From an uncultured Chloroflexia bacterium (lineage in GTDB: Bacteria; Chloroflexota; Dehalococcoidia; GIF9; UBA5629), in assembly GCA_963848815.1 (NCBI GenBank), contig CAWKFY010000033.1, positions 23,959 through 87,958 on the forward strand: 64,000 nt of DNA, written 5' to 3'. Position numbers and translations under genes: made by a program. Below, piece by piece: positions 6,874 to 32,165 of this stretch (its first letter is position 1; each line of letters begins with the position of its first letter). The notes beneath the pieces were generated by a model. The model was not told the origin of the DNA and ran no database searches. It was given only the letters and a program-made list of their open reading frames with translations.

Positions 6874-7926
6874 ATGGATTTCAAAATGTTAAATGTGCGG
6901 GCTGCCTCAATAGTTTTTCTGTTTGCTTTACTGTCTTTTACGGGTTGCGTTCAGACGGTCCAGCCGCTGACGCCGCCGGTTTCAGGTACTGTATCTGCCT
7001 CCACTGATAATTCCAGCGCGCAGAGCAGTGCCGCAACTTCCAATTCTCCTCTTCCGCCACTGGTCCCGCCCGGTAGGGGCGGCGTATATTCTGTGGGGCT
7101 GGCTATTTCACCGGATAAAACGGCTTACCCATCAGGAGAACTCGTTCAATTGAATGTGACAGTGATGAACAATTCATCGCTGAATTCGCAGCCGGTCACT
7201 ATCAATCCGTATCCGCCCCGCATAGACCTTGAAGTGCCGGTGTCCCCTGCTACGGGAGCTACGGATCTCTGGAGGCTATCGAACAGTGTGATAAAGACTT
7301 TTCCTGCCGGGACCGGCACAAAAACTTTTATTGCAGGGGAAAATATAACTTATCAATTGACCTGGGACCAGAAAGATAACGATGGTAAACAGGTGTCGCC
7401 ATGCTGGTATTTTTTCGACTATAAATTACAAGCTAATAACGGGTCCCAAAATTGGGGTTCCGGTGGAGCCGGTAAGGTATTACTCATCCAGTACCCGCAG
7501 GGCGCCATGAAGAAAACGATCCAGGTAAACCAATCCAAAAGAATAGAAAATCTGACCCTATCGATGGATGGAGGCGGGAGCCGGTCGATTGACCTTGTAT
7601 TACAACTCAAGCAAGTTGTGCTGAATGATATGGGCGCCAGCTTCCTGGTAGTTGCCAGCTCTCCCAGTCATCCCACGCCGGATTACAACGGCATAGGATG
7701 GGCCGGCTCTTCCGAAGCTGAATATATCGTTGACGGCGTTACTAAATATGCGAGGAGCGCTAATAGCCAGGTTACAGGCAACGGAGTTCAGCTGCGCTGG
7801 GGCGACGTAAATAATAAAGATTACTATCTTGATCCTATCCCCGCGGACGCCAAACAGCTTGTATTTATAATGACAGGTTTTGCCAACTGGAAAGGGCCAT
7901 GGCAATTTCAGGTTCCACTTCGGTGA
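6874..7926 (+). CDS. Lipoprotein, Y-module only
   Basis: RBS AAGGGAG and lipobox 'LSFTGC'. Paralog of the C-terminal half of 7937-9605, with shared blocks 'IKTFPAG', 'TWDQKDNDGKQ', 'LIQYPQGAM', 'VNQSKRI' and 'GFANWKGPW.FQVPL'. Confidence 0.7.
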   Translation: MDFKMLNVRAASIVFLFALLSFTGCVQTVQPLTPPVSGTVSASTDNSSAQSSAATSNSPLPPLVPPGRGGVYSVGLAISPDKTAYPSGELVQLNVTVMNNSSLNSQPVTINPYPPRIDLEVPVSPATGATDLWRLSNSVIKTFPAGTGTKTFIAGENITYQLTWDQKDNDGKQVSPCWYFFDYKLQANNGSQNWGSGGAGKVLLIQYPQGAMKKTIQVNQSKRIENLTLSMDGGGSRSIDLVLQLKQVVLNDMGASFLVVASSPSHPTPDYNGIGWAGSSEAEYIVDGVTKYARSANSQVTGNGVQLRWGDVNNKDYYLDPIPADAKQLVFIMTGFANWKGPWQFQVPLR

Positions 7927-7936
7927 GGGGATAAGA

Positions 7937-9605
7937 ATGAGACGTAAAAATGGAACTATTGCAGTAGTATTGCTGCTTGGTGCGTTAGCTGCAGCACTGG
8001 GTTGCGGCAATGCAACTACTCAAGCTAAGACCGATAACACCTCGTCCACCATACCTGCCCCAAACGCTTCATTAACCACCCCCGCACCTCCTTCACCCAC
8101 GACTGAGGACTTCGTTGGAATAAGTTCAAACGCTTCATTGTCGCTAAACGGTCTGAAACTTTCTCTGTCGCTTAACTCGACAACCTTTCAGCTCGGGGAG
8201 GAAGTATCGATAGTTATCGACGAACAGAATACATTGCCGGTCGAAAATAAGGTCCTTGCTTCGCAAAGCTGGCCGCTGGAGGGATTGAGCCTGGGTCCAT
8301 GCGGGACTATCAACTATCCTTTCGGCATAGCTATCTTTCAGGGCAATTATTCCGCTGCCGATATTTCAACGGCAAAACGGCTAATGCTTTATGACCCCGG
8401 CGCAACTTATCATTGTCCCGCGATGATAGCTGGAATCACTGCTTATGATTTTCAGCCTACGAGCGATATGGCCTCTATTTTCGATAGCTACGATCCTGAT
8501 CCGTTTGGTCCCACTCAAATAATATCGGAAGTTTCGGCGAAGGGATACTGGATCGGCAGCCCTGCTGCAACTCTAACCAACTTCCCTCCAGGGGTTTATA
8601 CAGTGGTGGCTGGAGATGAATGGGGCACAACTGGCAGTGCTTCATTTCGTTGTCGCCGTTCAGACAGCCCAGCAATTTCAGTTGGGTCCGCCTTATTACG
8701 TTGGCCCTCCATCAGACATTCCCACCGGGCCGGCGCACCCATTGTATTCTGTGCGGCTGGACCTCTTGCCTGGTAAAACGATGTACGCATTTGGCGAGCC
8801 CGCGCAAATGAATGTAACTCTAACGAACGAGTCGTCGCCGGATGCGGAAAAGGTCACTATCGCACCGTTTCCACCTCGCATAGATATTGTGCTGGCGGAG
8901 GAATGGGCCCCGGGGGAACCGCCCAAAAGTATCCCTAACCCCATAGCACTACCTGAATTTCCCGGGCTATCGATCAAGCTGATAAAGACTTTTCCCGCCG
9001 GAGACGGCGTTAAGATATTCAGTAATGGGGAAAATGTTACTTTTCAATTGACCTGGGACCAGAAGGATAACGATGGGAAGCAGATGTCGCCGGGCTATTA
9101 TTCTTACCAATATGATTATAGAATCGGTTCAGGCTCGGTCATTCAGTCCGGTCAGGGGGGAGGTGGAAAGGCATGCCTTATCCAGTACCCGCAGGGAGCC
9201 ATGCAAAAAATCATCGAGGTTAACCAGTCCAAAAGGATAAACAATCTGCCTTTGCAGACGGATAGCGGAAGCCGGCCGGTTGACCTGGTACTTGAACTCA
9301 AGCAGGTAGTCCTGAGAGAGGAAGGCTCCAGCTTTCTGGTAGTTGGCAGTTCGCCCAACAAACCCGCTACGGGTTACAGCGATGGTTGGACTGGTATGTG
9401 TGTTGCAAGATATGTGGTAGACGGAGTCACTAAAGATGCGCGCAGCGCGATCACACAGGTTACAGATAATGGAATTGTGCTGCGCTGGGGAGGAGAAGAT
9501 AACTGGCTTGACCCTGTGCCTGCGGACGCCAAACAGCTTTCACTCGTGATTCTGGGTTTCGCTAATTGGAAAGGGCCGTGGGAATTTCAGGTTCCTCTTA
9601 AGTGA
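7937..9605 (+). pseudogene. Lipoprotein with fused X and Y modules, interrupted by one +1 frameshift near 8632
   Basis: Lipobox 'LAAALGC'. Track ORFs 7880-8776 and 8616-9605 join if the T at 8632 is removed (ACAACTGGCAGTG here, ACAACGGCAGTG in the paralog at about 4005). Total length is 1669 nt, which is 3n+1. Confidence 0.6.
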
Positions 9606-9620
9606 TTCTAACAAGCTAGA

Positions 9621-10487
9621 TCACTTCCCGGTCAGCCCATATAGCTTGTGGTAGGCAGCTTCGAAGCCGGGGTCGGCTTCGGCCAGGCGATTTCTGATCT
9701 CTTTCATGTTCCCGGCGAACTGCCGGCCATCTTTCTTATTAACCAGGTCGAGCCAGCGGCCGGCCTTCTCCGTAAAGAGCTTCTCGATCTTAGCCACGCC
9801 CGGCAGGTTCATCTGAAGGGATGAGTAGAACTCGGGGTCCTCGGAGGCGACGCTCTCGGCCATAGTCAGGAGCAGCCTGTAGGTCGTGCCGCTTACCACA
9901 GCCGACTCTTTGATCCTGTCCAGCTCCAGCAGCGTGTCGGCGGTCACCAGGCCTATAAAATGCGACAGCCCCAGCACGATGCTCATGATCTCGTCATGCT
10001 CTGCCGGGGACATCACGGCCACCTTCGCCCCCCGCTCCTCCAGGTATTTCCTCACCTTGGCGGCCGTCTCCTCCTCGGCTTTGCCGGTGGGAGTCAGTAC
10101 GAAGCGTTGACCGGCCAGGCCGTCGGCGCCGGGACCGAACATGGGGTGCACGCCCAGCACCGAGCCTTTATTAATATATTTATGCATGACCTCCACAGGC
10201 ATGGCTTTGATCGAGGTTACGTCGAAGATAAGCTGCCCTTGACGTATATAAGGCGCGATCTCACTGACGATCTGCTCGAATTTATCGATGGGGATCGAGA
10301 GTATTACCGCATCGGACGTTTCCACGGCCTCCCTGCTGGAGGCGTATTCAGCACCCAGCCTCTCCGCCGTTTCCCGCAGCTTTTCCCGGTCGCGGCCGGC
10401 GATCACCACCTGCCTGCCCTCCCCGAGCAGGAAGCGGGCCAGCCACTGCCCCATCTTGCCGTATCCGCCGATAATGGCAACCTTCAT
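9621..10487 (-). CDS. tyrA: Prephenate dehydrogenase
   Basis: N-terminal Rossmann motif 'VAIIGGYGKMG', a 'GVHPMFGP' block and position as last gene of the aro operon. Confidence 0.85.
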   Translation of the reverse strand: MKVAIIGGYGKMGQWLARFLLGEGRQVVIAGRDREKLRETAERLGAEYASSREAVETSDAVILSIPIDKFEQIVSEIAPYIRQGQLIFDVTSIKAMPVEVMHKYINKGSVLGVHPMFGPGADGLAGQRFVLTPTGKAEEETAAKVRKYLEERGAKVAVMSPAEHDEIMSIVLGLSHFIGLVTADTLLELDRIKESAVVSGTTYRLLLTMAESVASEDPEFYSSLQMNLPGVAKIEKLFTEKAGRWLDLVNKKDGRQFAGNMKEIRNRLAEADPGFEAAYHKLYGLTGK

Positions 10488-10502: not shown

Positions 10503-11576
10503 TCACTGTGGCTTGGCCCTGGGATATGATCCCAGCACCTTCAAGAATGTGACGTGCTCCTTGAGCTGCTCGAGCGCCTCCTGAATGTTGGGGTCCTTGC
10601 GGTGTCCCTCGAAGTCCAGGTAGAAGTTATATTCCCAGGGCTTCTGGCGCGTGGGGCGCGACTCAATCTTGGTAAGGTTGATGTTGCGGTCGGCGAAGAT
10701 CTTGATGGCCTCGTAAAGTGTGCCCGGCTTGTGCGCCAGCAAAAAGACCACCGAGGTCTTGTCGCTGCCGGTCTGGGGAGAATCTTTACCGCTCAGGATG
10801 AAAAAGCGGGTGGTGTTGTTGGGGTTGTCCTCTATCTCCCGCGCCAGTATCTTCATATCGTAAATCTCGGCGGCGGTGGCGCTGGCGATGGCCGCGCCGT
10901 CCATGATCTTCTCGTCCTTGATCATCTTGACGCTGCCCGCCGTGTCGTAGGTGGGTATCACTTCATAGCCCATGCGCTTGAGAAAGCCCTGGCTCTGCCC
11001 CAGCGCCTGCGGGTGTGAATAGACCTTCTTGACCGTCTCCAGCGTGGCGCCCTTATTGGCGATCAGGCAGTGCGTGACCCTGACCTGGGTCTCGCCGCGT
11101 ACCATGACGTCGGAATCGAGCAGTAAATCATAGGAGCGGCTGATGCTGCCGACCTGCGAGTTCTCCACGGGGATGATGCCGTAGGGCAGCGTGCCCTCCT
11201 GCACGGCGGCGAAGACCTCTTCCAGCGTGTCGAAGGGACCGGTCTCGACCGAGGGGCCGAAGAAGCCCATGGCGGCCTCCTGGCTGTAGGCGCCCGGCTC
11301 TCCCTGGAAGGCCACCTCCATGCCCTGTATGCTTTTGGAAGCCTTGATGACCAGCTTGTAGATGCGGTCCATGTCCTCGGGGTTGAGTCCCTCCTTTTTG
11401 GCCAGCTCCCTGACGTTCCTGAGCACCTGCTCCTCGCGGGCCTTGTCCTCAATGGGGCGCTTGCTCTCTTTCTTCTCCCGCCCGATCTCGTTGGACAGCT
11501 TCTGCCGCTGCGACAGCAGCTCGATAACTTTGATATCGATGTCGTCGATTAACTTTCTGGAATCGTGTATGCTCAT
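10503..11576 (-). CDS. pheA: Bifunctional chorismate mutase / prephenate dehydratase
   Basis: Chorismate mutase helix region, then a PDT domain ('AFQGEPGAYS', 'TRF') and a C-terminal ACT domain ('ESRP'). The likely start MSIHDS at 11576 overlaps the aroC stop as ATGA. The track ORF extends further 5' to 11675. Confidence 0.9.
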   Translation of the reverse strand: MSIHDSRKLIDDIDIKVIELLSQRQKLSNEIGREKKESKRPIEDKAREEQVLRNVRELAKKEGLNPEDMDRIYKLVIKASKSIQGMEVAFQGEPGAYSQEAAMGFFGPSVETGPFDTLEEVFAAVQEGTLPYGIIPVENSQVGSISRSYDLLLDSDVMVRGETQVRVTHCLIANKGATLETVKKVYSHPQALGQSQGFLKRMGYEVIPTYDTAGSVKMIKDEKIMDGAAIASATAAEIYDMKILAREIEDNPNNTTRFFILSGKDSPQTGSDKTSVVFLLAHKPGTLYEAIKIFADRNINLTKIESRPTRQKPWEYNFYLDFEGHRKDPNIQEALEQLKEHVTFLKVLGSYPRAKPQ

Positions 11577-12664
11577 TTCAGCACCTCTTTTATCAGTCCC
11601 GCCCTCATGGCGAAATCGCACAGGACCAGCTTCATCATGGCCGCGGCCACCGGCGCCGCCCTGGGCACGATGCAACTGTCATGCCTGCCCTTGATCGATA
11701 GATCGACCTCTTTGCCCGCCTTGAGGTCAACCGACCTCTGCTTTACGCTGATGGAGGGCGTGGGCTTGACGGCGATCCTGGCTACGATGGGCATGCCGTT
11801 GCTGATGCCGCCCGAAATGCCCCCCGCATTGTTGGTCAGCGTAACAACCTTTTTATGCTTAAGCATAAATATATCATTATGCTGCGAACCTTTCATAGTT
11901 GCCGAGGCGAAGCCCGAACCGAACTCCACCCCCTTTACAGCAGGTATGGCGAAGAAGGCTTTGGCAAGGTCGCCTTCCAGGGTGTCGAAAACCGGTTCGC
12001 CCAGTCCGGCCGGCACGTCCAGCGCCATGACCTCGATTACGCCGCCGATGCTGTCGCCCGCCTTCCTGACCTTCTCAATGAGCCTGATGATTTTTAAAGC
12101 CGCATCAGGGTCGGCGCACCTGACGGGATTTTTATCCACGGTCTTTTTTATATTGGCGGGCGTTTGCGGCGAAGCCTTTATGTCCCCTACCTGCACCGTA
12201 TGGGCCAGCACCTCGATGCCCAGCCTCCCGAGCAGCTTGCCGGCCACGGCCCCCGCCATGACGAACCCGGCCGTGATGCGGCCGGAGAAACGTCCTCCGC
12301 CGCGGAAATCGTTATATCCGCCGTACTTGAGCCAGGCCGTGTAGTCGGCATGGCCCGGACGTGGTACAGCCTTTAAACTCTCATAGGCTGAGGAATCGGT
12401 ATCGCGGTTGCGTACCAGCAGGCAGAGCGGCGCGCCGGTAGTAGTGCCGTTGAAGACGCCGGAGAGTATCTCCACGAGATCCTTCTCCCTGCGGGCGGTG
12501 CCCCCGGCGGCCGGCATGGGCTTGCGCCGGTCGACCTCTTTTTGAATCTCAGCGGCGGCCAGCGGCAGGCCGGCCGGACAGCCGTCCACGATGACGCCGA
12601 CGCATTCGCCGTGGCTCTCGCCGAAGCTGGTGACAACGAATATCTTACCCAGGCTATTTCCCAT
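11573..12664 (-). CDS. aroC: Chorismate synthase
   Basis: 363 aa and intact, with the motifs 'FGESHG', 'RPGHAD' and 'RHDSCIVPRA'. Confidence 0.92.
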   Translation of the reverse strand: MGNSLGKIFVVTSFGESHGECVGVIVDGCPAGLPLAAAEIQKEVDRRKPMPAAGGTARREKDLVEILSGVFNGTTTGAPLCLLVRNRDTDSSAYESLKAVPRPGHADYTAWLKYGGYNDFRGGGRFSGRITAGFVMAGAVAGKLLGRLGIEVLAHTVQVGDIKASPQTPANIKKTVDKNPVRCADPDAALKIIRLIEKVRKAGDSIGGVIEVMALDVPAGLGEPVFDTLEGDLAKAFFAIPAVKGVEFGSGFASATMKGSQHNDIFMLKHKKVVTLTNNAGGISGGISNGMPIVARIAVKPTPSISVKQRSVDLKAGKEVDLSIKGRHDSCIVPRAAPVAAAMMKLVLCDFAMRAGLIKEVLK

Positions 12665-13915
12665 CTAAAATTACTTCACCTCCCATGCTTTTCAGGACGT
12701 CCCAGAACTCGGGCCAGGTCTTGGAGACGCATTCGGCGCCCTCTATTATGGTGTCGCCCGCCAGCACACCCAGGATGCTGAAGGCCATGGCGATGCGGTG
12801 GTCTCCCTTCGAATCTACGCGGCGCCCCTCAGGCGTCCGCCCATGATGAAAAGGCTATAGCGGCCCTCGCTCACGTGGATGCCCATGCGCTCCAGTCCCT
12901 CGCTGACGGCCGCTATCCGGTCGGACTCCTTGAGCCGGGCGCGCTCGATGCCGCTCAGCTCGCTGACTCCAGGCGTGGCCGCGCAAAGCGCCGCCACCGT
13001 GGGCAGCAGGTCGATGCAGTCGGAGAGGTCGGCCTTGAGCGGCTTCAAATCGGACTTTTTAACCGTGACTGAGTCGTGATCGGGATAGATATTGGCGCCC
13101 ATGCGTTTCATCAGGCTCAACAGGGCCGGTCGGCCTGGCGGCTTTCGATATTCAAATTGCCTACATTCGCCTCGCCTGCCACGGCGCCCAGCGCCAGCAG
13201 GTAGGATGCCGATGACCAGTCTCCCTCCACTCTGTAGCGTGGTGGGGTGATAGCTCTGCCGTTCTGCCGTGAAGCTGCGCAGCGTGTCGTCCGGCTTTAT
13301 TTTCACGCCGAACTCTTTCATGCAGTCCAGCGTCATCATGATGTAAGGGACCGACTCAGGCGGCGTGGTCAGCTCGATCTTCATTTGCTGTGGGGCCAGC
13401 GGCGCGATGAAGAGCAGGGCCGAAACGAACTGCGAGCTGATATCGCCCGGCAGGACGGCCGTGCCGCCCTTCAGGCCGCCCTCCACCGTCACGGGGGCCA
13501 TGCCCCTTTCAGATCGGCAGTTAACGCCCACCTGTTGCAGGGCCTCGACCAGCGGGCCGACGGGACGTCCGGCCAGCGACGGGCCCGGCCGTCAGCCGGC
13601 AGGCGCCCGGCACCAGCGAGCAGACCGCCGTCATGAAGCGCAGCGTGCCCGCCGAGTCCCGGCAATACAGGTCGGAGTCCGGCTTTTTAAAATGCCCGCC
13701 CTGTGACCAGCCAGGCATCGCTGCCGTCCTCGATGCCGACGCCGATCTTGCCCAGCACATCGCGGGCGGCCTCGGTATCGTCGGCAGGCAGGGGGCTGAC
13801 GATTTCGCTCGGCCTTGGCCAGTGCGGCGCACACCAGGCCGCGCAGCGTGTAGCTCTTGGAGGAGGGCGCTTTCACCTTCCCCTGTATGTTGCTCTTAGA
13901 TATGAGCGCCCGCAT
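12654..13915 (-). pseudogene. aroA: 3-phosphoshikimate 1-carboxyvinyltransferase (EPSP synthase), frame broken at >=6 sites
   Basis: Track ORFs 13631-13915, 13521-13832 and 12815-13531 plus an unlisted tail give a continuous EPSPS-like protein only after frame changes. The changes fall near 13806-13812, 13694-13702, 13578-13586, 13228-13236, 13124-13131 and 12824-12838. The restored C-terminus 'VDSKGDHRIAMAF...GGEVILDGK*' stops at 12654 and overlaps the aroC start. Confidence 0.85.
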
Positions 13916-14429
13916 TATTTCCTCCGCCGCTGTGCAATTTGATCCACGATATCCTGCACGGACAGGTCGGACGTGTCAACCGTAATATCGGCGGCGTTCT
14001 CATATAAAGGCCTGCGGTAACTTGAGAAGCTCCTGTACGGCCGCCGCCGGGTCGGGCACTTCCAGCAGGGGACGTTTTTCGCCGCCCCAGGCCACGCGCT
14101 TCAGCGCTACCGACGGCAGTACCTTAAGGTAGACGATATCGCATGTCTCTTTAAGCGCAGCGATATTGGCGGGGTTGAGCACGATACCGCCGCCGCAGGC
14201 GATGACGGCCCCCTTCTTCCCGGCCGCTTCCAGCGCTACCTCGGCCTCGATCTTGCGGAAGGCCGGCTCGCCCTCCTCCTCGAATATCTGCGGCAATGGA
14301 CTTGCGGCATTTCTCCGTAACCAGCGCATCGAGCTCGACGAACTCCATATTGAGACTGTCGGCCAGCGCCCTGCCTACGGCGGATTTTCCCGCGCCCATG
14401 AAGCCTATCAGGGCTATATTACTTTTCAT
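13915..14429 (-). pseudogene. aroK: Shikimate kinase, frame broken at 2 sites
   Basis: Walker A 'GFMGAGKS'. Track ORFs 14151-14429 and 14000-14329 plus a tail join with shifts near 14290-14297 and 14012-14022. The restored end '...DIVDQIAQRRRK*' overlaps the aroA ATG as TAATG. Confidence 0.85.
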
Positions 14430-15296
14430 GTCCCTTTCAGCGCCTCAACCGCTGCTTTCCTCATAATATCGACGGGGGCCTTATGGCCGGTCCATTTCTC
14501 GAAGGCCAGTGCGCCCTGCCAGACCAGCATGTCCAGCCCGTTGACTGTCGCAGCGCCGGCTTTCGCCGCCTCCTTCAGAAGCCGCGTTTCAACGGGGTTG
14601 TAAACTATGTCCACCACCGTATGCTGCGGCCCGATGAGATCGCCTTTGACCAGGGTCTCGTCCGGTTCGGGCGACATGCCCACGCTGGTGGTGTTAACCA
14701 GGATGTGGCCCTTTTTCAGGGCGGTTGTAATATTCTGCCGGTCTAAGGGCATGGCCTCAGCCGGGTGCCCGGCGGTTTTCATAATATCCCCCACCAGGCG
14801 GGCGGCCCTGCCCGACGTCCTGTTCAATATGATGAGCGCCACTCCTGCGGTGGATAGTGCGAAGCAGACTGCCCTGGCTGCGCCGCCCGAGCCGAGGATA
14901 ACCGCAGTCTTGCCCCTGACTTCGACGTTATGTTCTTTCAGAGCTCGCATGAAACCTTCGGCATCCGTGTTATAGCCTTTGAGCATACTGCTATCGTTGA
15001 TAATCACGTTCACTGCGCCGATGGAGCGTGCCGGAGGGTCTATCTCATCCAGCAGAGGTATGACTTTTACCTTGTAGGGGATGGTGACGTTGATCCCCCG
15101 GATACTGAGCGCCCGCATGCCCTGCACGGCGGCTGCCAGGTGCCTGGGTGGAACCCTGAACGGCAGATATGACATAGTCCAGTCCCAGCGCTTTGAAGGC
15201 GGCGTTGTGCATGGCCGGCGACACGGTATGTTCGACGGGGTCGCCGATGACTCCGCAGACCGTGGTCTTGCCGGTTATCTCGGGCCATGTGTTCAT
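14426..15296 (-). pseudogene. aroE: Shikimate 5-dehydrogenase, frame broken at 1 site
   Basis: The N-terminus '[34 protein letters not shown]' (inside track ORF 15045-15461) joins ORF 14426-15175 ('YLPFRV...NVTIPYK...GSGGAARA') with a shift near 15168-15174. Confidence 0.85.
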
Positions 15297-15946
15297 CCGC
15301 CAACCCCAGCAGCCTGCGCATGACTTCAGCCGGCACCTGGCCGGGTGCGGACTCTTTGCCACTCCCTGTGGAAGCGTAAGTAAAATAGCTGCCCGCCCAC
15401 GGCGACAGCACGCGGCTGAGCCTCCCCTCTGCGCCCATGGCGAAGGAAACGATCCTGGCACTGGGGAAGCACGCGGATAATTTCGAGCACGGGGATGTTA
15501 TCCTCGATCTTGACGGCTGTGGTCACAAGCTTGCAAATGTCGGCGCCGGCCTTGATCTGCCGACGTACTATGGCCGCCAGTTCATCCGTTGAGGGCGTGC
15601 CCTGCCAGTCATGGTGCGAGATGATGCATCTGGCCTTTTTTTTGATCTGTGGCACAATATCTTTCAGATCCTCGGCATTGAGCTCAATATCGATGATATC
15701 GGCGCCCAGATTGGCTGCCGAAAGGAGCTCCCTAATCCTGCCTTCCTCACCCGCCCTCCATTTTCCGTGCTCATTCACGCTGCGATTGGCGGCTATCCAG
15801 GGCTTTTTGAGCGCAGGTACGATCTCACGCCAGCCTTCCCCGATCATATCTATGCGTACCTCGAAGAGGTCGGCCAATCCGGCGGCGCTTTTAAGCGAAC
15901 TGACGTCATTGTCTGTTATAACCGTGCAGATCTTAAGTCTCTTCAT
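15293..15946 (-). pseudogene. aroD: 3-dehydroquinate dehydratase type I, frame broken at 1 clear site and probably a second
   Basis: ORF 15326-15946 loses homology after '[12 protein letters not shown]'. The continuation '[30 protein letters not shown]' is in the frame of ORF 15067-15438, with the shift near 15458-15468. The 3' end at 15293 is inferred from a TGA overlapping the aroE ATG, which needs one more shift near 15300-15325. Confidence 0.75.
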
Positions 15947-17027
15947 TGTTCCTCTCCAACACTTCTATAGCCAGCGCAAAACTTACATCTTCGGAGATGA
16001 AGACCTTGCCTATCGAGCGCGGCAGTATGAAACTGCATTTTACCGTTGTGCACTTTCTTGTCGTGCTCCATGGCCTTGATCACCCTGGCCATGTCCAGGC
16101 GCGGCACGGCCACGGGCAGCCCGGCCGCCAGCAGCAGGTTTTTCAGCCAGGGCCAGCTCTTTGGCCTTGAAGATGCCGATCTTATTGGAAATGACGCAGG
16201 CCGTGACCATGCCTATGGCTATGGCCTGGCCGTGCTTGATCCTGAAATCGGAGGCGGACTCGATGGCATGGCCGATGGTATGGCCGAAATTGAGTATATT
16301 GCGCAGGCCGGTGTCCTTCTCGTCCTTTTCGACGATGGCGGCTTTGATGGCGGCCGACCTGACTACGATCTCCTCCAGCAGCAAGTTATCGAAGGAACGG
16401 ACCTTGTCCAGGTTTTTTTCCAGCAGGCTGAAGAAAGCCCTGTCCCGGATAACGGCGTACTTGATAACCTCGGCCAGGCCGTTGCTGACCTCAATGTGAG
16501 GCAGGCTGTGAAGCGTGAGGGTATCGGATACGACCAGCAAGGGCTGATGAAAGACGCCGATATTGTTTTTAAGCGGGCCGTGGTCGACCGCGGTCTTGCC
16601 GCCGATGCTGCTGTCAACCTGCGCCAGCAGGGTGGTGGGCAGCTGTACCAGCGGGCAGGCCGCGCATATAGGTGGCGGCCACGAAGCCGGCCAGGTCGCC
16701 GATAACTCCGCCGCCCAGGGCCAGCATGGGGGTCGTGCCGCTCGGCGTGGACCGCCTGCAGGCCCGCATAGAGTTTGGCGGCGGTATCCAGCGACTTATG
16801 CTCTTCGCCTTCCGGGACCAGCAGCAGTGCGGGTTTGAAACCCGGCCTTGTCCAGCGACCGCTTGAGTATAGTCGCCGTACAGCCTGTCGACGATGGGAT
16901 TGGTGATGATGACGGCCTTATCCGGAGGGCAGCATCGCCTCAGCCATATGCCTACCTGCCCGAGCAGGTCCCGGCCTATGCGGATGTCGTAGCCCCTTCT
17001 GCCAAGCCTGACCTTGACTATCCTCAA
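15933..17027 (-). pseudogene. aroB: 3-dehydroquinate synthase, frame broken at about 6 sites
   Basis: The conserved blocks 'ALGGGVIGDLAGFVAATYMRG', 'LVQLPTTLLAQVDSSIGGKTAV', 'NFGHTIGHAIE' and 'LPRSIGKVFISEDV' lie in different frames. Shifts fall near 16855-16866, 16835-16845, 16728-16735, 16650-16658, 16138-16145 and 16027-16033. The 3' end is approximate. Confidence 0.85.
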
Positions 17028-17042
17028 CCTGATCGGCCCACC

Positions 17043-18113
17043 TTATTGGCTGCCCGCCCGGCCTGCAACCATCTGATGGATTTCCCGGCAGGCCTTTATT
17101 ATATCCTGTAGCTCGCCGGTGTAATGGTCTGCCGGCCGTCCACGATGGCCTCCTGCGGGGTTGTAGTGCGCTTCGATCATCAGCCCGTCGGCGCCGGCGG
17201 CGATGGCGGCGCAGCTCATGCTGAATATCAGGTCGCGGCGGCCGGTGGCGTGGCTGGGGTCGACGATGACCGGCAGGTAGGTCTCCTTCTTCATGACGGG
17301 CACGGCGGCCAGGTCGAGGGTGTAGCGGGTGAATTCCCTGCCCTTGCCCACGGGCACGATGCCGCGCTCGCACAGGATGATGTCCTTGTTGCCCTCGGCG
17401 GCGATATATTCGGCGAAGGAGAGGAATTCCTCGATGCCGGCGCCGAAATGCCTTTTGAGCAGGACGGGCTTGTTCTTCTTGCCCACCTTGCCCAGCAGGT
17501 CCTGGTTGTACATATTGCGGGAGCCTATCTGCAGTATATCGACATATTCGGCGGCCAGGTCGACGTGGTCCTCGCCCCTGACCTCGGTGACGACCGGCAG
17601 GCCGAACTCTCGTCCGGCGTCGCGCATCCATTTAAGCGCCTGTTCGGCGCTCTTGCGGTCGGTGCCGCCCACGCCCTGGAAGGAATGCACCGAGCTGCGG
17701 GGCTTGAAGATGCCGCCCCTCAGGATGTGCGCGCCGGCTTTCTTAACGGCCTCGGCTATCATGAACAATTGCTTCTTGTTCTCCACTGCGCAGGGGCCTG
17801 CCATGATGATGGGCTCGCCGTTGCCGATCTGGAGGTTGCCTATCTGGACGGGCTTGCGTTCCTCGCCTTTCTCGCCCGTAGCCCGGCCGTACTCCCGGCT
17901 GATGAGTTTATATGGCGTTTCGATTTTAATCACCTCCTTTACGCCTGGCAAGACTGCTAAATGATCGAAAGGGACGTTACTCTCGTCGCCGACCAGCCCG
18001 ATAACGGTCCTAAAATCGCCGCGGGAGACATCGGCCTTGAGGCCGTAATGCCGTATCTCCTTGACGATGCGCTTGATATCCTCGTCTGTTGCGTCGCGTT
18101 TCATGATCATCAT
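17043..18113 (-). CDS. aroF: DAHP synthase (type I-beta) with an N-terminal ferredoxin-like regulatory domain; about 13 C-terminal codons are out of frame
   Basis: 356-aa ORF with a KDSA/DAHPS core ('IMAGPCAVE', 'KPRSS', 'IVDPSH'). Between about 17115 and 17155 the listed frame reads 'AGGHRGRPADHYTG', while the +1 frame reads the family-typical 'EAIVDGRQTITP'. That indicates two compensating indels. RBS AGGAGG at 18124-18129. Confidence 0.88.
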   Translation of the reverse strand: MMIMKRDATDEDIKRIVKEIRHYGLKADVSRGDFRTVIGLVGDESNVPFDHLAVLPGVKEVIKIETPYKLISREYGRATGEKGEERKPVQIGNLQIGNGEPIIMAGPCAVENKKQLFMIAEAVKKAGAHILRGGIFKPRSSVHSFQGVGGTDRKSAEQALKWMRDAGREFGLPVVTEVRGEDHVDLAAEYVDILQIGSRNMYNQDLLGKVGKKNKPVLLKRHFGAGIEEFLSFAEYIAAEGNKDIILCERGIVPVGKGREFTRYTLDLAAVPVMKKETYLPVIVDPSHATGRRDLIFSMSCAAIAAGADGLMIEAHYNPAGGHRGRPADHYTGELQDIIKACREIHQMVAGRAGSQ

Positions 18114-18142
18114 TGCTCGTGTACCTCCTGAAATTTTAGTGT

Positions 18143-18179
18143 ATAAAAAGAGAGGAGCCCTCCGCTTGGAGGGCTCCTT
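18143..18179 (-). terminator. Intrinsic terminator of the aro leader (attenuator terminator)
   Basis: On the minus strand GGAGCCCTCC-aagc-GGAGGGCTCC (18177 down to 18154) is a perfect 10-bp GC-rich stem followed by TCTCTTTTTAT. It sits about 30 nt upstream of the aroF start. The plus strand also reads as a hairpin followed by TTTATTTT. Confidence 0.7.
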
Positions 18180-18205
18180 TATTTTGCTACTTCTTTACTT
18201 ACTTC

Positions 18206-18307
18206 TTATCTGGAACCGGGTGCGCTGCACCTCTCCCCAAGCCTATCGCAGGGCGTAAAAAACCAGTAATAGAAGTAAAAGCTTTGAGAGGCTATGCAGT
18301 TTTCCAT
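18206..18307 (-). CDS. Aromatic-rich leader peptide (33 aa) of the aro operon
   Basis: MENCIASQSFYFYYWFFTPCDRLGERCSAPGSR, with eight consecutive aromatic codons (TTT TAC TTC TAT TAC TGG TTT TTT) at 18257-18280. No clear SD. It is below the ORF-track cut-off. Confidence 0.6.
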   Translation of the reverse strand: MENCIASQSFYFYYWFFTPCDRLGERCSAPGSR

Positions 18308-18379
18308 ATCAGTAGATAAGATTAACATAGAAAAAAACGGCTGTCAAAATCCGGCTACAAAACGGTAATTATACGCACA

Positions 18380-18853
18380 TCATGTAATCAGGACGTTTTT
18401 GGGCGACGGGTGCTCTTTGATTAGGGCTTCCATTATTTCCACGGCGTCCCGGACGAAGGGCGGGCAGACCGTGCGGAAAAGCCCCAGTTTGCGCACCTCG
18501 AGTAGTGTCTGGCGGTTGCTGATGTCATAGCCCAGCAAGTCCCGGCAGACAACGGTCTTGTGCCTGGCCTTAAACCGCTGCAGGAACTCGCCCACCAACT
18601 GGTAGGTGGCCTCGTTGGATGAGAAGGGGTCTTCGGAAGACATGCCGTAGTGAAGTCCGAGCGCCATGATTGCGCCGGAGACGGCCCCGCAGGTCTCGGC
18701 CATGCGGCCGATTCCGCCGCCGAAGCCGGCAGCGATCTTCTGCGCATTGATAATGCTCAGCCCGTAATCGGCGGCGAAAGCAGACAGCACAGACTGCGAA
18801 CAATTGAAACCTTTCTTAAAGGTGGCTACGGCCTTTTCAGATTTTTCACTCAT
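18380..18853 (-). CDS. C_GCAxxG_C_C family redox protein
   Basis: 'FNCSQSV', 'ETCGAVSGA', 'VVCRDLL' and 'TVCPPF' reproduce the family Cys pattern. Confidence 0.8.
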   Translation of the reverse strand: MSEKSEKAVATFKKGFNCSQSVLSAFAADYGLSIINAQKIAAGFGGGIGRMAETCGAVSGAIMALGLHYGMSSEDPFSSNEATYQLVGEFLQRFKARHKTVVCRDLLGYDISNRQTLLEVRKLGLFRTVCPPFVRDAVEIMEALIKEHPSPKNVLIT

Positions 18854-18902
18854 CCAAGTACGTCCTTAACCGTCTATCATCGCTCCCCTTCGGAATCTAT
18901 AT

Positions 18903-31470: not shown

Positions 31471-32165
31471 GCCCAGCCCTCGGCGGACAGGTAGTCGTGA
31501 AGCTCATCGGGATGGTGGCGGCAGTGGTATTCCAGCCTGCTCGACTCGGCATGTGCCTTGGAATAGGGCAAGCCCTGCGCCATGCGGTTACGTTCGTGAA
31601 GCTCGTGCAAGAGCACGTAGCCTCGCTCCTGCTCTTCCAGGTCATTATCGATCCAGACCTCATTATCCGGCACGAACTCGTAGACGTGGTCGTGGCCGCC
31701 CTCGGTGAAATCGATGTCAAAGACGCTGCGTACCATGCGCCCGTCTACGATCCAGACGCTGACTCCATCCTCCAGCTTCTTCCACAGCTCGACATGCGCT
31801 TTGGCGCCGTCGGGCAGCTTCTGCCCGTCACGTGTAAAGCGTGATAGGTCTCCCGCCTTGCGGCGCTCGGCCCGCTCTGCCAGGTCGGCCTTGGTGATGG
31901 CGTCATCGTAGGACATGCCTTTGGCCATCAGCCGGTGCTCTACCAGCAGGTGCTCGATGTAGAACTCGGTCTCATCCTCTTTGGCCTCACGGTCTATCCA
32001 CAGCTCATCTAGCGGGATGTACTTGAACCTGTAATGCTGGCCGAAGTTGGTGAACTCCTCATCTATGTGGCCGCGGATGTAAGCGCCGTCTACCGACCAG
32101 ACCGCCAGGTCGCCGCGCTCATCCAGCTTCTTGATGTAGGGAGGCTTTAAGCTGTTTCCCACCAT
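31467..32165 (-). CDS. Hypothetical protein with an internal tandem duplication; second half carries HExxH
   Basis: The halves align on VW.VDG...D..FT..G....Y.F.P..E.WID...E....H.L.E...MA.G..Y..A. The second half reads 'LLHELHERNRM' and the first has the degenerate 'LLVEHRLM'. Confidence 0.5.
   Translation of the reverse strand: MVGNSLKPPYIKKLDERGDLAVWSVDGAYIRGHIDEEFTNFGQHYRFKYIPLDELWIDREAKEDETEFYIEHLLVEHRLMAKGMSYDDAITKADLAERAERRKAGDLSRFTRDGQKLPDGAKAHVELWKKLEDGVSVWIVDGRMVRSVFDIDFTEGGHDHVYEFVPDNEVWIDNDLEEQERGYVLLHELHERNRMAQGLPYSKAHAESSRLEYHCRHHPDELHDYLSAEGWA

Follow-up and report, generated by a model that had tools for sequence, protein, structure and literature searches.

Clustered single-base frame breaks in the aro operon of a draft Dehalococcoidia genome are very probably errors of the deposited assembly

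Have the genes of a shikimate-pathway operon lost their reading frames in a living bacterium, or only in the sequence deposited for it? The question is raised by the aro operon in a window of 64,000 nucleotides (GenBank assembly GCA_963848815.1, contig CAWKFY010000033.1, positions 23,959 to 87,958) from a draft Dehalococcoidia metagenome-assembled genome (MAG) of 2.25 Mb in 46 contigs, called G000 below, in which the window is C33:23959-87958. The aromatic/shikimate operon lies on the minus strand, with the gene order aroF, aroB, aroD, aroE, aroK, aroA, aroC, pheA, tyrA. In the minus-strand stop-to-stop open reading frames (ORFs), aroB, aroD, aroE, aroK and aroA are each spread over two to three frames and match their families piecewise, fragment by fragment (TIGR01357 for aroB, TIGR01093 for aroD, TIGR00507 for aroE, shikimate kinase models for aroK and TIGR01356 for aroA), whereas aroF, aroC, pheA and tyrA each form one ORF. 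Judging from the sequence comparisons presented here, the frame breaks very probably arose during base calling or consensus building for the deposited assembly, not by mutation in the organism.

The aro operon was located in five genomes of the same genus, and the four that carry it on one contig were aligned to the window: the complete 2.46-Mb genome G004 (87% nucleotide identity), G002 (83%), G001 (79%) and G005 (78%). The genes aroF, aroB, aroD, aroE, aroK, aroA and aroC are uninterrupted in all four. In G004, the single ORFs encode AroF, AroB, AroD, AroE, AroK, AroA and AroC of 356, 362, 222, 289, 170, 420 and 363 amino acids, respectively, and when these proteins were compared with the window using tblastn, the high-scoring segment pairs (HSPs) jumped from frame to frame. 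In the fifth genome, the draft G003, contigs C6 and C63 break inside the aro operon at the equivalent of window positions 15445-15516, which weakly suggests that this locus is difficult for short-read assembly.

A private event was defined as a column of the five-way nucleotide alignments (A1 and A2, made with MAFFT) in which the window alone differs. Nineteen gapped private events were found between positions 12818 and 17154, each within about 13 nt of one of the roughly 19 frame disruptions that an earlier sequence-only reading had listed. They consist of 14 insertions, all of 1 bp, and five deletions, of which one is of 2 bp and the others of 1 bp (positions by gene in Table 1). An additional compensated pair, a deletion near 16937 and an insertion near 16925 about 12 nt apart, is ungapped in A1 and brings the total to 21 events: 15 one-base insertions, five one-base deletions and one 2-bp deletion. 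The density of the patch is 4.4-4.8 events per kilobase across 4,337 bp. At its upstream end the reading frame of aroF is still open, as the insertion and the deletion in this gene compensate each other and garble a stretch of about 11 codons close to the C-terminus. Short homopolymer runs, which the same reading had noticed at most sites, do accompany part of the events; at least six of the 14 insertions are unambiguously non-homopolymeric (for example GA[C]TATA, TGC[A]GTT, GTG[C]TTC, GTC[A]TAT and GTT[A]CCG, the inserted base in brackets). A model in which errors arise in homopolymers only is ruled out by several such insertions, in the aro patch as well as in gyrB.

The flanks were covered by two further alignments to the four congeners (A3 and A4, positions 11110-12650 and 17350-18890), the coding flank being counted as 11110-12817 plus 17155-18113. 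In these 2.67 kb of aligned coding flanks, no private insertion or deletion (indel) was found. Under the patch rate, zero events would have a probability of 4.6e-6, so the edges of the patch are sharp. The earlier statement that aroC, pheA, tyrA and most of aroF are intact therefore stands, on the aligned coding flanks and on the single ORFs with full-length NCBIfam matches of these genes.

Selection signatures were normal in each of the five broken genes. Codons were read through the alignment in the frames of G004, and changes were polarised with G002. The changes were mostly at third positions, and the ratio of nonsynonymous to synonymous codon changes (N:S) was 46:106 on the window lineage compared to 35:105 on the intact G004 lineage (Fisher p = 0.36). 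Once repaired, the genes show 81-94% amino-acid identity to G004, equal to that of the intact neighbours. The corrected frames were said to be free of premature stops, and this was the case: the five genes contain 0 stop codons among 1,456 codons, and neither relaxed purifying selection nor nonsense mutations, both of which were sought, were seen in them. Alignment to the nearest aro operons at the nucleotide level, which had been suggested as a check, thus classified the lesions as 15 insertions and 6 deletions, all of 1-2 bp, with an N:S that is not raised.

In curated bacterial pseudogenes the insertion:deletion ratio is 0.76, the deletions are many bp long on average (396 totalling 7,421 nt) and indels arise about ten-fold more rarely than substitutions (PMC6054270). 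A binomial test against the pseudogene ratio gave p = 0.013 for the patch and 5e-31 for the genome-wide calls described below. The insertion-rich spectrum of 1-2 bp events is the reverse of that of real bacterial pseudogenes. Since indels are about ten times rarer than substitutions, some 21 neutral indels would be expected alongside unconstrained substitutions numbering on the order of a hundred or more, nonsense codons among them.

The distribution of such breaks over the whole genome was obtained with a Viterbi scan whose dicodon log-odds were derived from the long ORFs of G000 itself. The states were plus-strand coding, minus-strand coding and non-coding; a coding state had to end at any stop codon, and frameshifts were modelled as shifts of 1 or 2 nt that carried a penalty. 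At penalty 10, the scan produced 312 calls in 2.25 Mb (0.139 per kilobase), nine of them in the aro patch (2.0 per kilobase), and it recovered 9-11 of the events of the patch independently of the alignments. No call was made in 61.3 kb of congener loci, which included the same aro and gyrB genes, and three were made in all the control loci fetched (238.8 kb). Recall on simulated single indels was 0.48 overall, 0.11 below 45% guanine plus cytosine (GC) and 0.62 above 60%. With a recall of only 0.48, the true load is estimated at about 650 indels, or approximately one per 3.5 kb. Insertion-type and deletion-type calls numbered 235 and 77, the same 3:1 proportion as in the patch, and recall was nearly equal for both types. 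A frame break was called in 251 gene models, 46 of which had at least two calls; this corresponds to about 10% of the 2,601 gene models and to 13% relative to the 1,916 models of at least 100 amino acids.

The calls were over-dispersed (variance/mean of 1.96). At penalty 8, 19 clusters of at least four calls were observed compared to 1.75 expected. The aro patch was the longest cluster, and others were equally dense or denser, with 6.0 calls per kilobase on C36 and 4.4 calls per kilobase in the gyrB region. Dense clusters were also present at contig ends (C16:90-2766, C19:164243-167836 and C46:18126-20614). The clusters were GC-rich, mostly 0.56-0.63 compared to 0.514 for the genome, and the aro operon has approximately 61% GC compared to 51%. 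Recall-corrected calls climbed with GC content, from about 0.7 per 5 kb below 45% to about 2.5 at 55-60% and up to about 10. GC content was rejected as the sole cause of the patch, as aroF, aroC and pheA are equal in GC yet clean; it is a correlate only.

In the remaining 59.6 kb of the window, the scan gave two calls, both doubtful. Calls at 31507 and 42626 were probably produced by the scan itself, each being placed about 3 nt from the end of a gene model. The sequence-only reading had described the genes neighbouring the patch, and two PAS genes elsewhere, as intact. The window is not entirely clean outside the patch: in a family of signal-peptide lipoprotein paralogues, the copy at about 3305-4034 matches the paralogue at 7880-8776 in two frames and probably carries another frame break. 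The region 6874-9605 contains three ORFs overlapping by 47 and 161 nt, with weak frameshift calls at 7891 and 8585; no Pfam match was found there, nor any homologue in G004 or G002.

Several of the genes hit are essential. Nine frame-corrected models with 3-4 calls each were compared with NCBIfam; eight matched a family and one matched none. The profile match ran in one stretch across the called sites for DNA gyrase subunit B (4 calls), a glycyl-radical activase, an amidase and an ABC ATPase, as it did for ribulose-phosphate 3-epimerase (profile positions 7-210 of 211) and homocysteine synthase (4-429 of 431). Glycine-tRNA ligase (3 calls) reached 630 bits in two stretches, and a VhuA-like hydrogenase subunit matched well below the curated cut-off. 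The assembly holds one copy each of gyrB, glyS and rpe. In the alignment of gyrB to the four congeners, five 1-bp insertions are private to G000 and gapped deletions are absent; two further ungapped stretches resemble, by eye, compensated shifts. Several of these five insertions clearly lie outside homopolymers (AACAA[G]AACACG and CTGA[T]CCGG, for example). No free-living bacterium can do without gyrase B and glycyl-tRNA synthetase, and lesions of this class are therefore artefacts of the deposited sequence. The CheckM completeness of the genome is 74.7% at 2.25 Mb, compared to 91-98% for congeners of 2.1-2.5 Mb. Indel errors lower the completeness of MAGs, and frameshift correction raises it by about 10 points (PMC8103633); we explain the low value here by the genome-wide frame breaks.

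The frame breaks of the aro operon are judged not to be a real biological feature, and there is no new biology in the breaks themselves. A preference for a consensus or assembly artefact had been expressed from the letters alone, and it is supported by the presence of the same insertion-biased 1-bp lesions throughout the genome, essential genes included, by the lack of relaxed selection and by the intact congeners. The narrower proposal of a local, homopolymer-type problem in the aro region holds as far as the artefact is concerned but not as to place and type, as this is one of at least 19 dense patches genome-wide and the errors are not mainly in homopolymers. In the model that we propose, the consensus would carry hundreds of spurious 1-bp indels, with insertions approximately three times as frequent as deletions. 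The errors would gather in patches of 1-4 kb, tending to be GC-rich, where the consensus is weakest, and the aro operon would hold the longest of them. The cause of the patches may be, as a guess, an error-prone long-read consensus built from few reads, or stretches that were missed by short-read polishing or gap-filled. An error-prone, low-depth long-read consensus resembles the observed signature, with many more indels than substitutions, more insertions than deletions and many events outside homopolymers. The organism itself is predicted to have, most likely, an intact and functional aroF-B-D-E-K-A-C operon, like all four congeners.

Some observations weigh against the assembly-error explanation. 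The patch edges are sharper than GC content explains, next to clean aroF, aroC and pheA of similar composition. Neither a second aro copy nor a paralogous operon was found in the assembly at E <= 1e-5; because the aro genes have no second copy, redundancy provides no argument against a real loss. When AroC was compared with 5.8 billion proteins, nothing but the window's own copy was above 86% identity, and the AroC cluster was a singleton. Metagenome contigs scanned with a genus-invariant aroE 20-mer yielded 36 loci, the best of which had 86% nucleotide identity, and no conspecific copy. It is improbable, at a level that still deserves mention, that one or more of the aro lesions are real.

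If the lesions were mutations, five shikimate-pathway enzymes would just have been lost by very recent pseudogenisation, leaving aroF, aroC, pheA, tyrA and the leader upstream of aroF intact, and an auxotrophy would be emerging. The lesions are indeed present in the deposited sequence and restricted to one functional unit, the assembly has no second aro copy, and Dehalococcoidia are often metabolically dependent on partners. Such a history would nevertheless require about 21 independent indels to have arisen almost simultaneously, without a nonsynonymous excess or a single nonsense codon; their bias towards insertions and their size of 1 bp are also the reverse of what natural pseudogenes show. 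Such a history would also have to account for lesions of identical type and density in the indispensable genes gyrB and glyS, and for the extension of the patch into aroF, where the two events happen to cancel out. We consider this history highly unlikely. The snapshot of emerging aromatic auxotrophy that the sequence-only reading had offered as its second possibility finds no support in the N:S values, the absence of stops, the insertion-biased spectrum and the equally damaged gyrB and glyS; that all or a subset of the aro lesions would be real, the population having been caught shortly after losing steps 2-6 of the pathway while keeping the entry enzyme, chorismate synthase, the Phe/Tyr branch and the attenuator, appears very doubtful.

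An intermediate situation can be imagined, in which the assembly is error-prone and one or a few aro lesions are nevertheless genuine, a real pseudogene being hidden among artefacts. With such a background error rate no single site can be judged from sequence alone, and the aro patch is the longest cluster of the genome. However, no aro site is distinguishable from the rest, selection signatures are normal in all five genes, and density is similar or higher elsewhere, on C36 and around gyrB, which leaves this combination with a very slight probability. The preservation of protein motifs in the shifted frames, and nothing more, would agree with a bypass of the breaks in vivo by programmed ribosomal frameshifting, transcriptional slippage or RNA editing. 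The 21 sites are of both signs, are missing from all four congeners and have no slippery heptamer or motif in common, and the same breaks are scattered through hundreds of unrelated genes; recoding of this kind is hardly conceivable. Programmed frameshifting in particular was rejected, as no slippery site is conserved in any of the four congeners and no motif is shared.

Residual indel errors in long-read genomes were reportedly described by Watson & Warr in 2019. The occurrence of frameshifts caused by indels in draft long-read genomes and MAGs is well described (proovframe preprint 10.1101/2021.08.23.457338; PMC8103633). The present genome is similar to such drafts in that conserved genes are broken across frames by 1-bp indels, gene calls come out too numerous and too short, CheckM completeness is lowered and related references are intact; in these drafts the effect is worse at low coverage. 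It differs from the nanopore consensus, for which homopolymer deletions are typical, by errors that are 3:1 insertion-biased, often non-homopolymeric and clustered in patches of 1-4 kb. As in pseudogenes of reductive evolution, such as those of the Ca. Burkholderia leaf-nodule symbionts (PMC6054270), several frameshifts affect adjacent biosynthetic genes while the operon architecture is kept. Natural pseudogenes, however, show a deletion bias, a wide range of indel sizes, substitutions, nonsense codons and an elevated ratio of nonsynonymous to synonymous substitution rates (dN/dS), none of which is present in the aro patch. With programmed frameshifting (prfB +1, dnaX -1), the operon shares a functional protein encoded across two frames; in those systems each gene has a single site, conserved across relatives and equipped with a slippery sequence and stimulators, whereas here there are 21 unconserved sites without a motif.

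The finding serves chiefly as a caution. Taken at face value, the record predicts that an uncultured Dehalococcoidia species is auxotrophic for aromatic amino acids and lacks gyrase B, glycyl-tRNA synthetase and other functions, and it would put fragmented proteins into databases. Metabolic reconstruction or pseudogene counts from this genome need frameshift-aware handling or re-polishing. The features of the locus, and the genes split across frames elsewhere in the assembly, are given in Table 1.

Table 1. Features of the aro locus in window coordinates, followed by genes split across frames at other positions of G000 (contig coordinates); ins, insertion; del, deletion.
Feature	Position	Strand	Remarks
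Promoter-like TTGACA...TATGTTAAT	18321-18347	-	upstream of aroF
Leader ORF of 33 codons, encoding MENCIASQSFYFYYWFFTPCDRLGERCSAPGSR	18206-18307	-	run FYFYYWFF, eight consecutive aromatic codons (Phe, Tyr, Trp)
Strong terminator hairpin and U-run	18143-18178	-	directly ahead of the aroF ribosome-binding site
aroF, DAHP synthase, 356 amino acids	17046-18113	-	NCBIfam NF006421 full length, 416 bits; tblastn 89% identity to G004 AroF; ins 17154, del 17120
Indel-dense patch	12818-17154	-	21 private frame-disrupting events vs four congeners
aroB, 3-dehydroquinate synthase	15939-17027	-	8 events: del near 16937, ins near 16925, ins 16872, 16847, 16741, 16656, 16149, 16034; tblastn HSPs in three frames; TIGR01357 partial, longest fragment only
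aroD, type I dehydroquinate dehydratase	15301-15955	-	ins 15469; del 15300, which abolishes the aroD stop at the aroD/aroE overlap
aroE, shikimate dehydrogenase	14429-15296	-	ins 15170, which cuts the first 42 codons off from the remainder
aroK, shikimate kinase	13918-14429	-	ins 14290, 14018
aroA, EPSP synthase	12657-13915	-	del 13815 (2 bp), 13127, 12818; ins 13702, 13583, 13240
aroC	11576-12664	-	intact; full-length NCBIfam match
pheA, chorismate mutase/prephenate dehydratase	10506-11675	-	intact; full-length NCBIfam match
tyrA	9624-10487	-	intact; full-length NCBIfam match
Homocysteine synthase	C33:13672-14992		before the window start; split across frames
gyrB	C22:19432-21356		split across frames; alignment to four congeners
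glyS, glycyl-tRNA synthetase	C29:101270-102613		split across frames
rpe	C13:26375-27011		split across frames

The more interesting feature of the locus is the aromatic leader peptide upstream of aroF. It belongs to a putative leader-peptide transcription attenuator on the minus strand at 18143-18347, composed of the promoter-like sequence, the leader ORF and the terminator listed in Table 1. No Rfam match at the gathering level was obtained within the window; on the leader, Phe_leader (RF01859) appeared below threshold, with 29 bits compared to a gathering score of 55 (E = 0.005). A literature search found no description of such a leader element in Chloroflexota/Dehalococcoidia. By its sequence, the aroF leader looks like a classic leader-peptide attenuator, and the whole element is kept in four of four congeners, where the aromatic run reads ...SFYAYYWFF...

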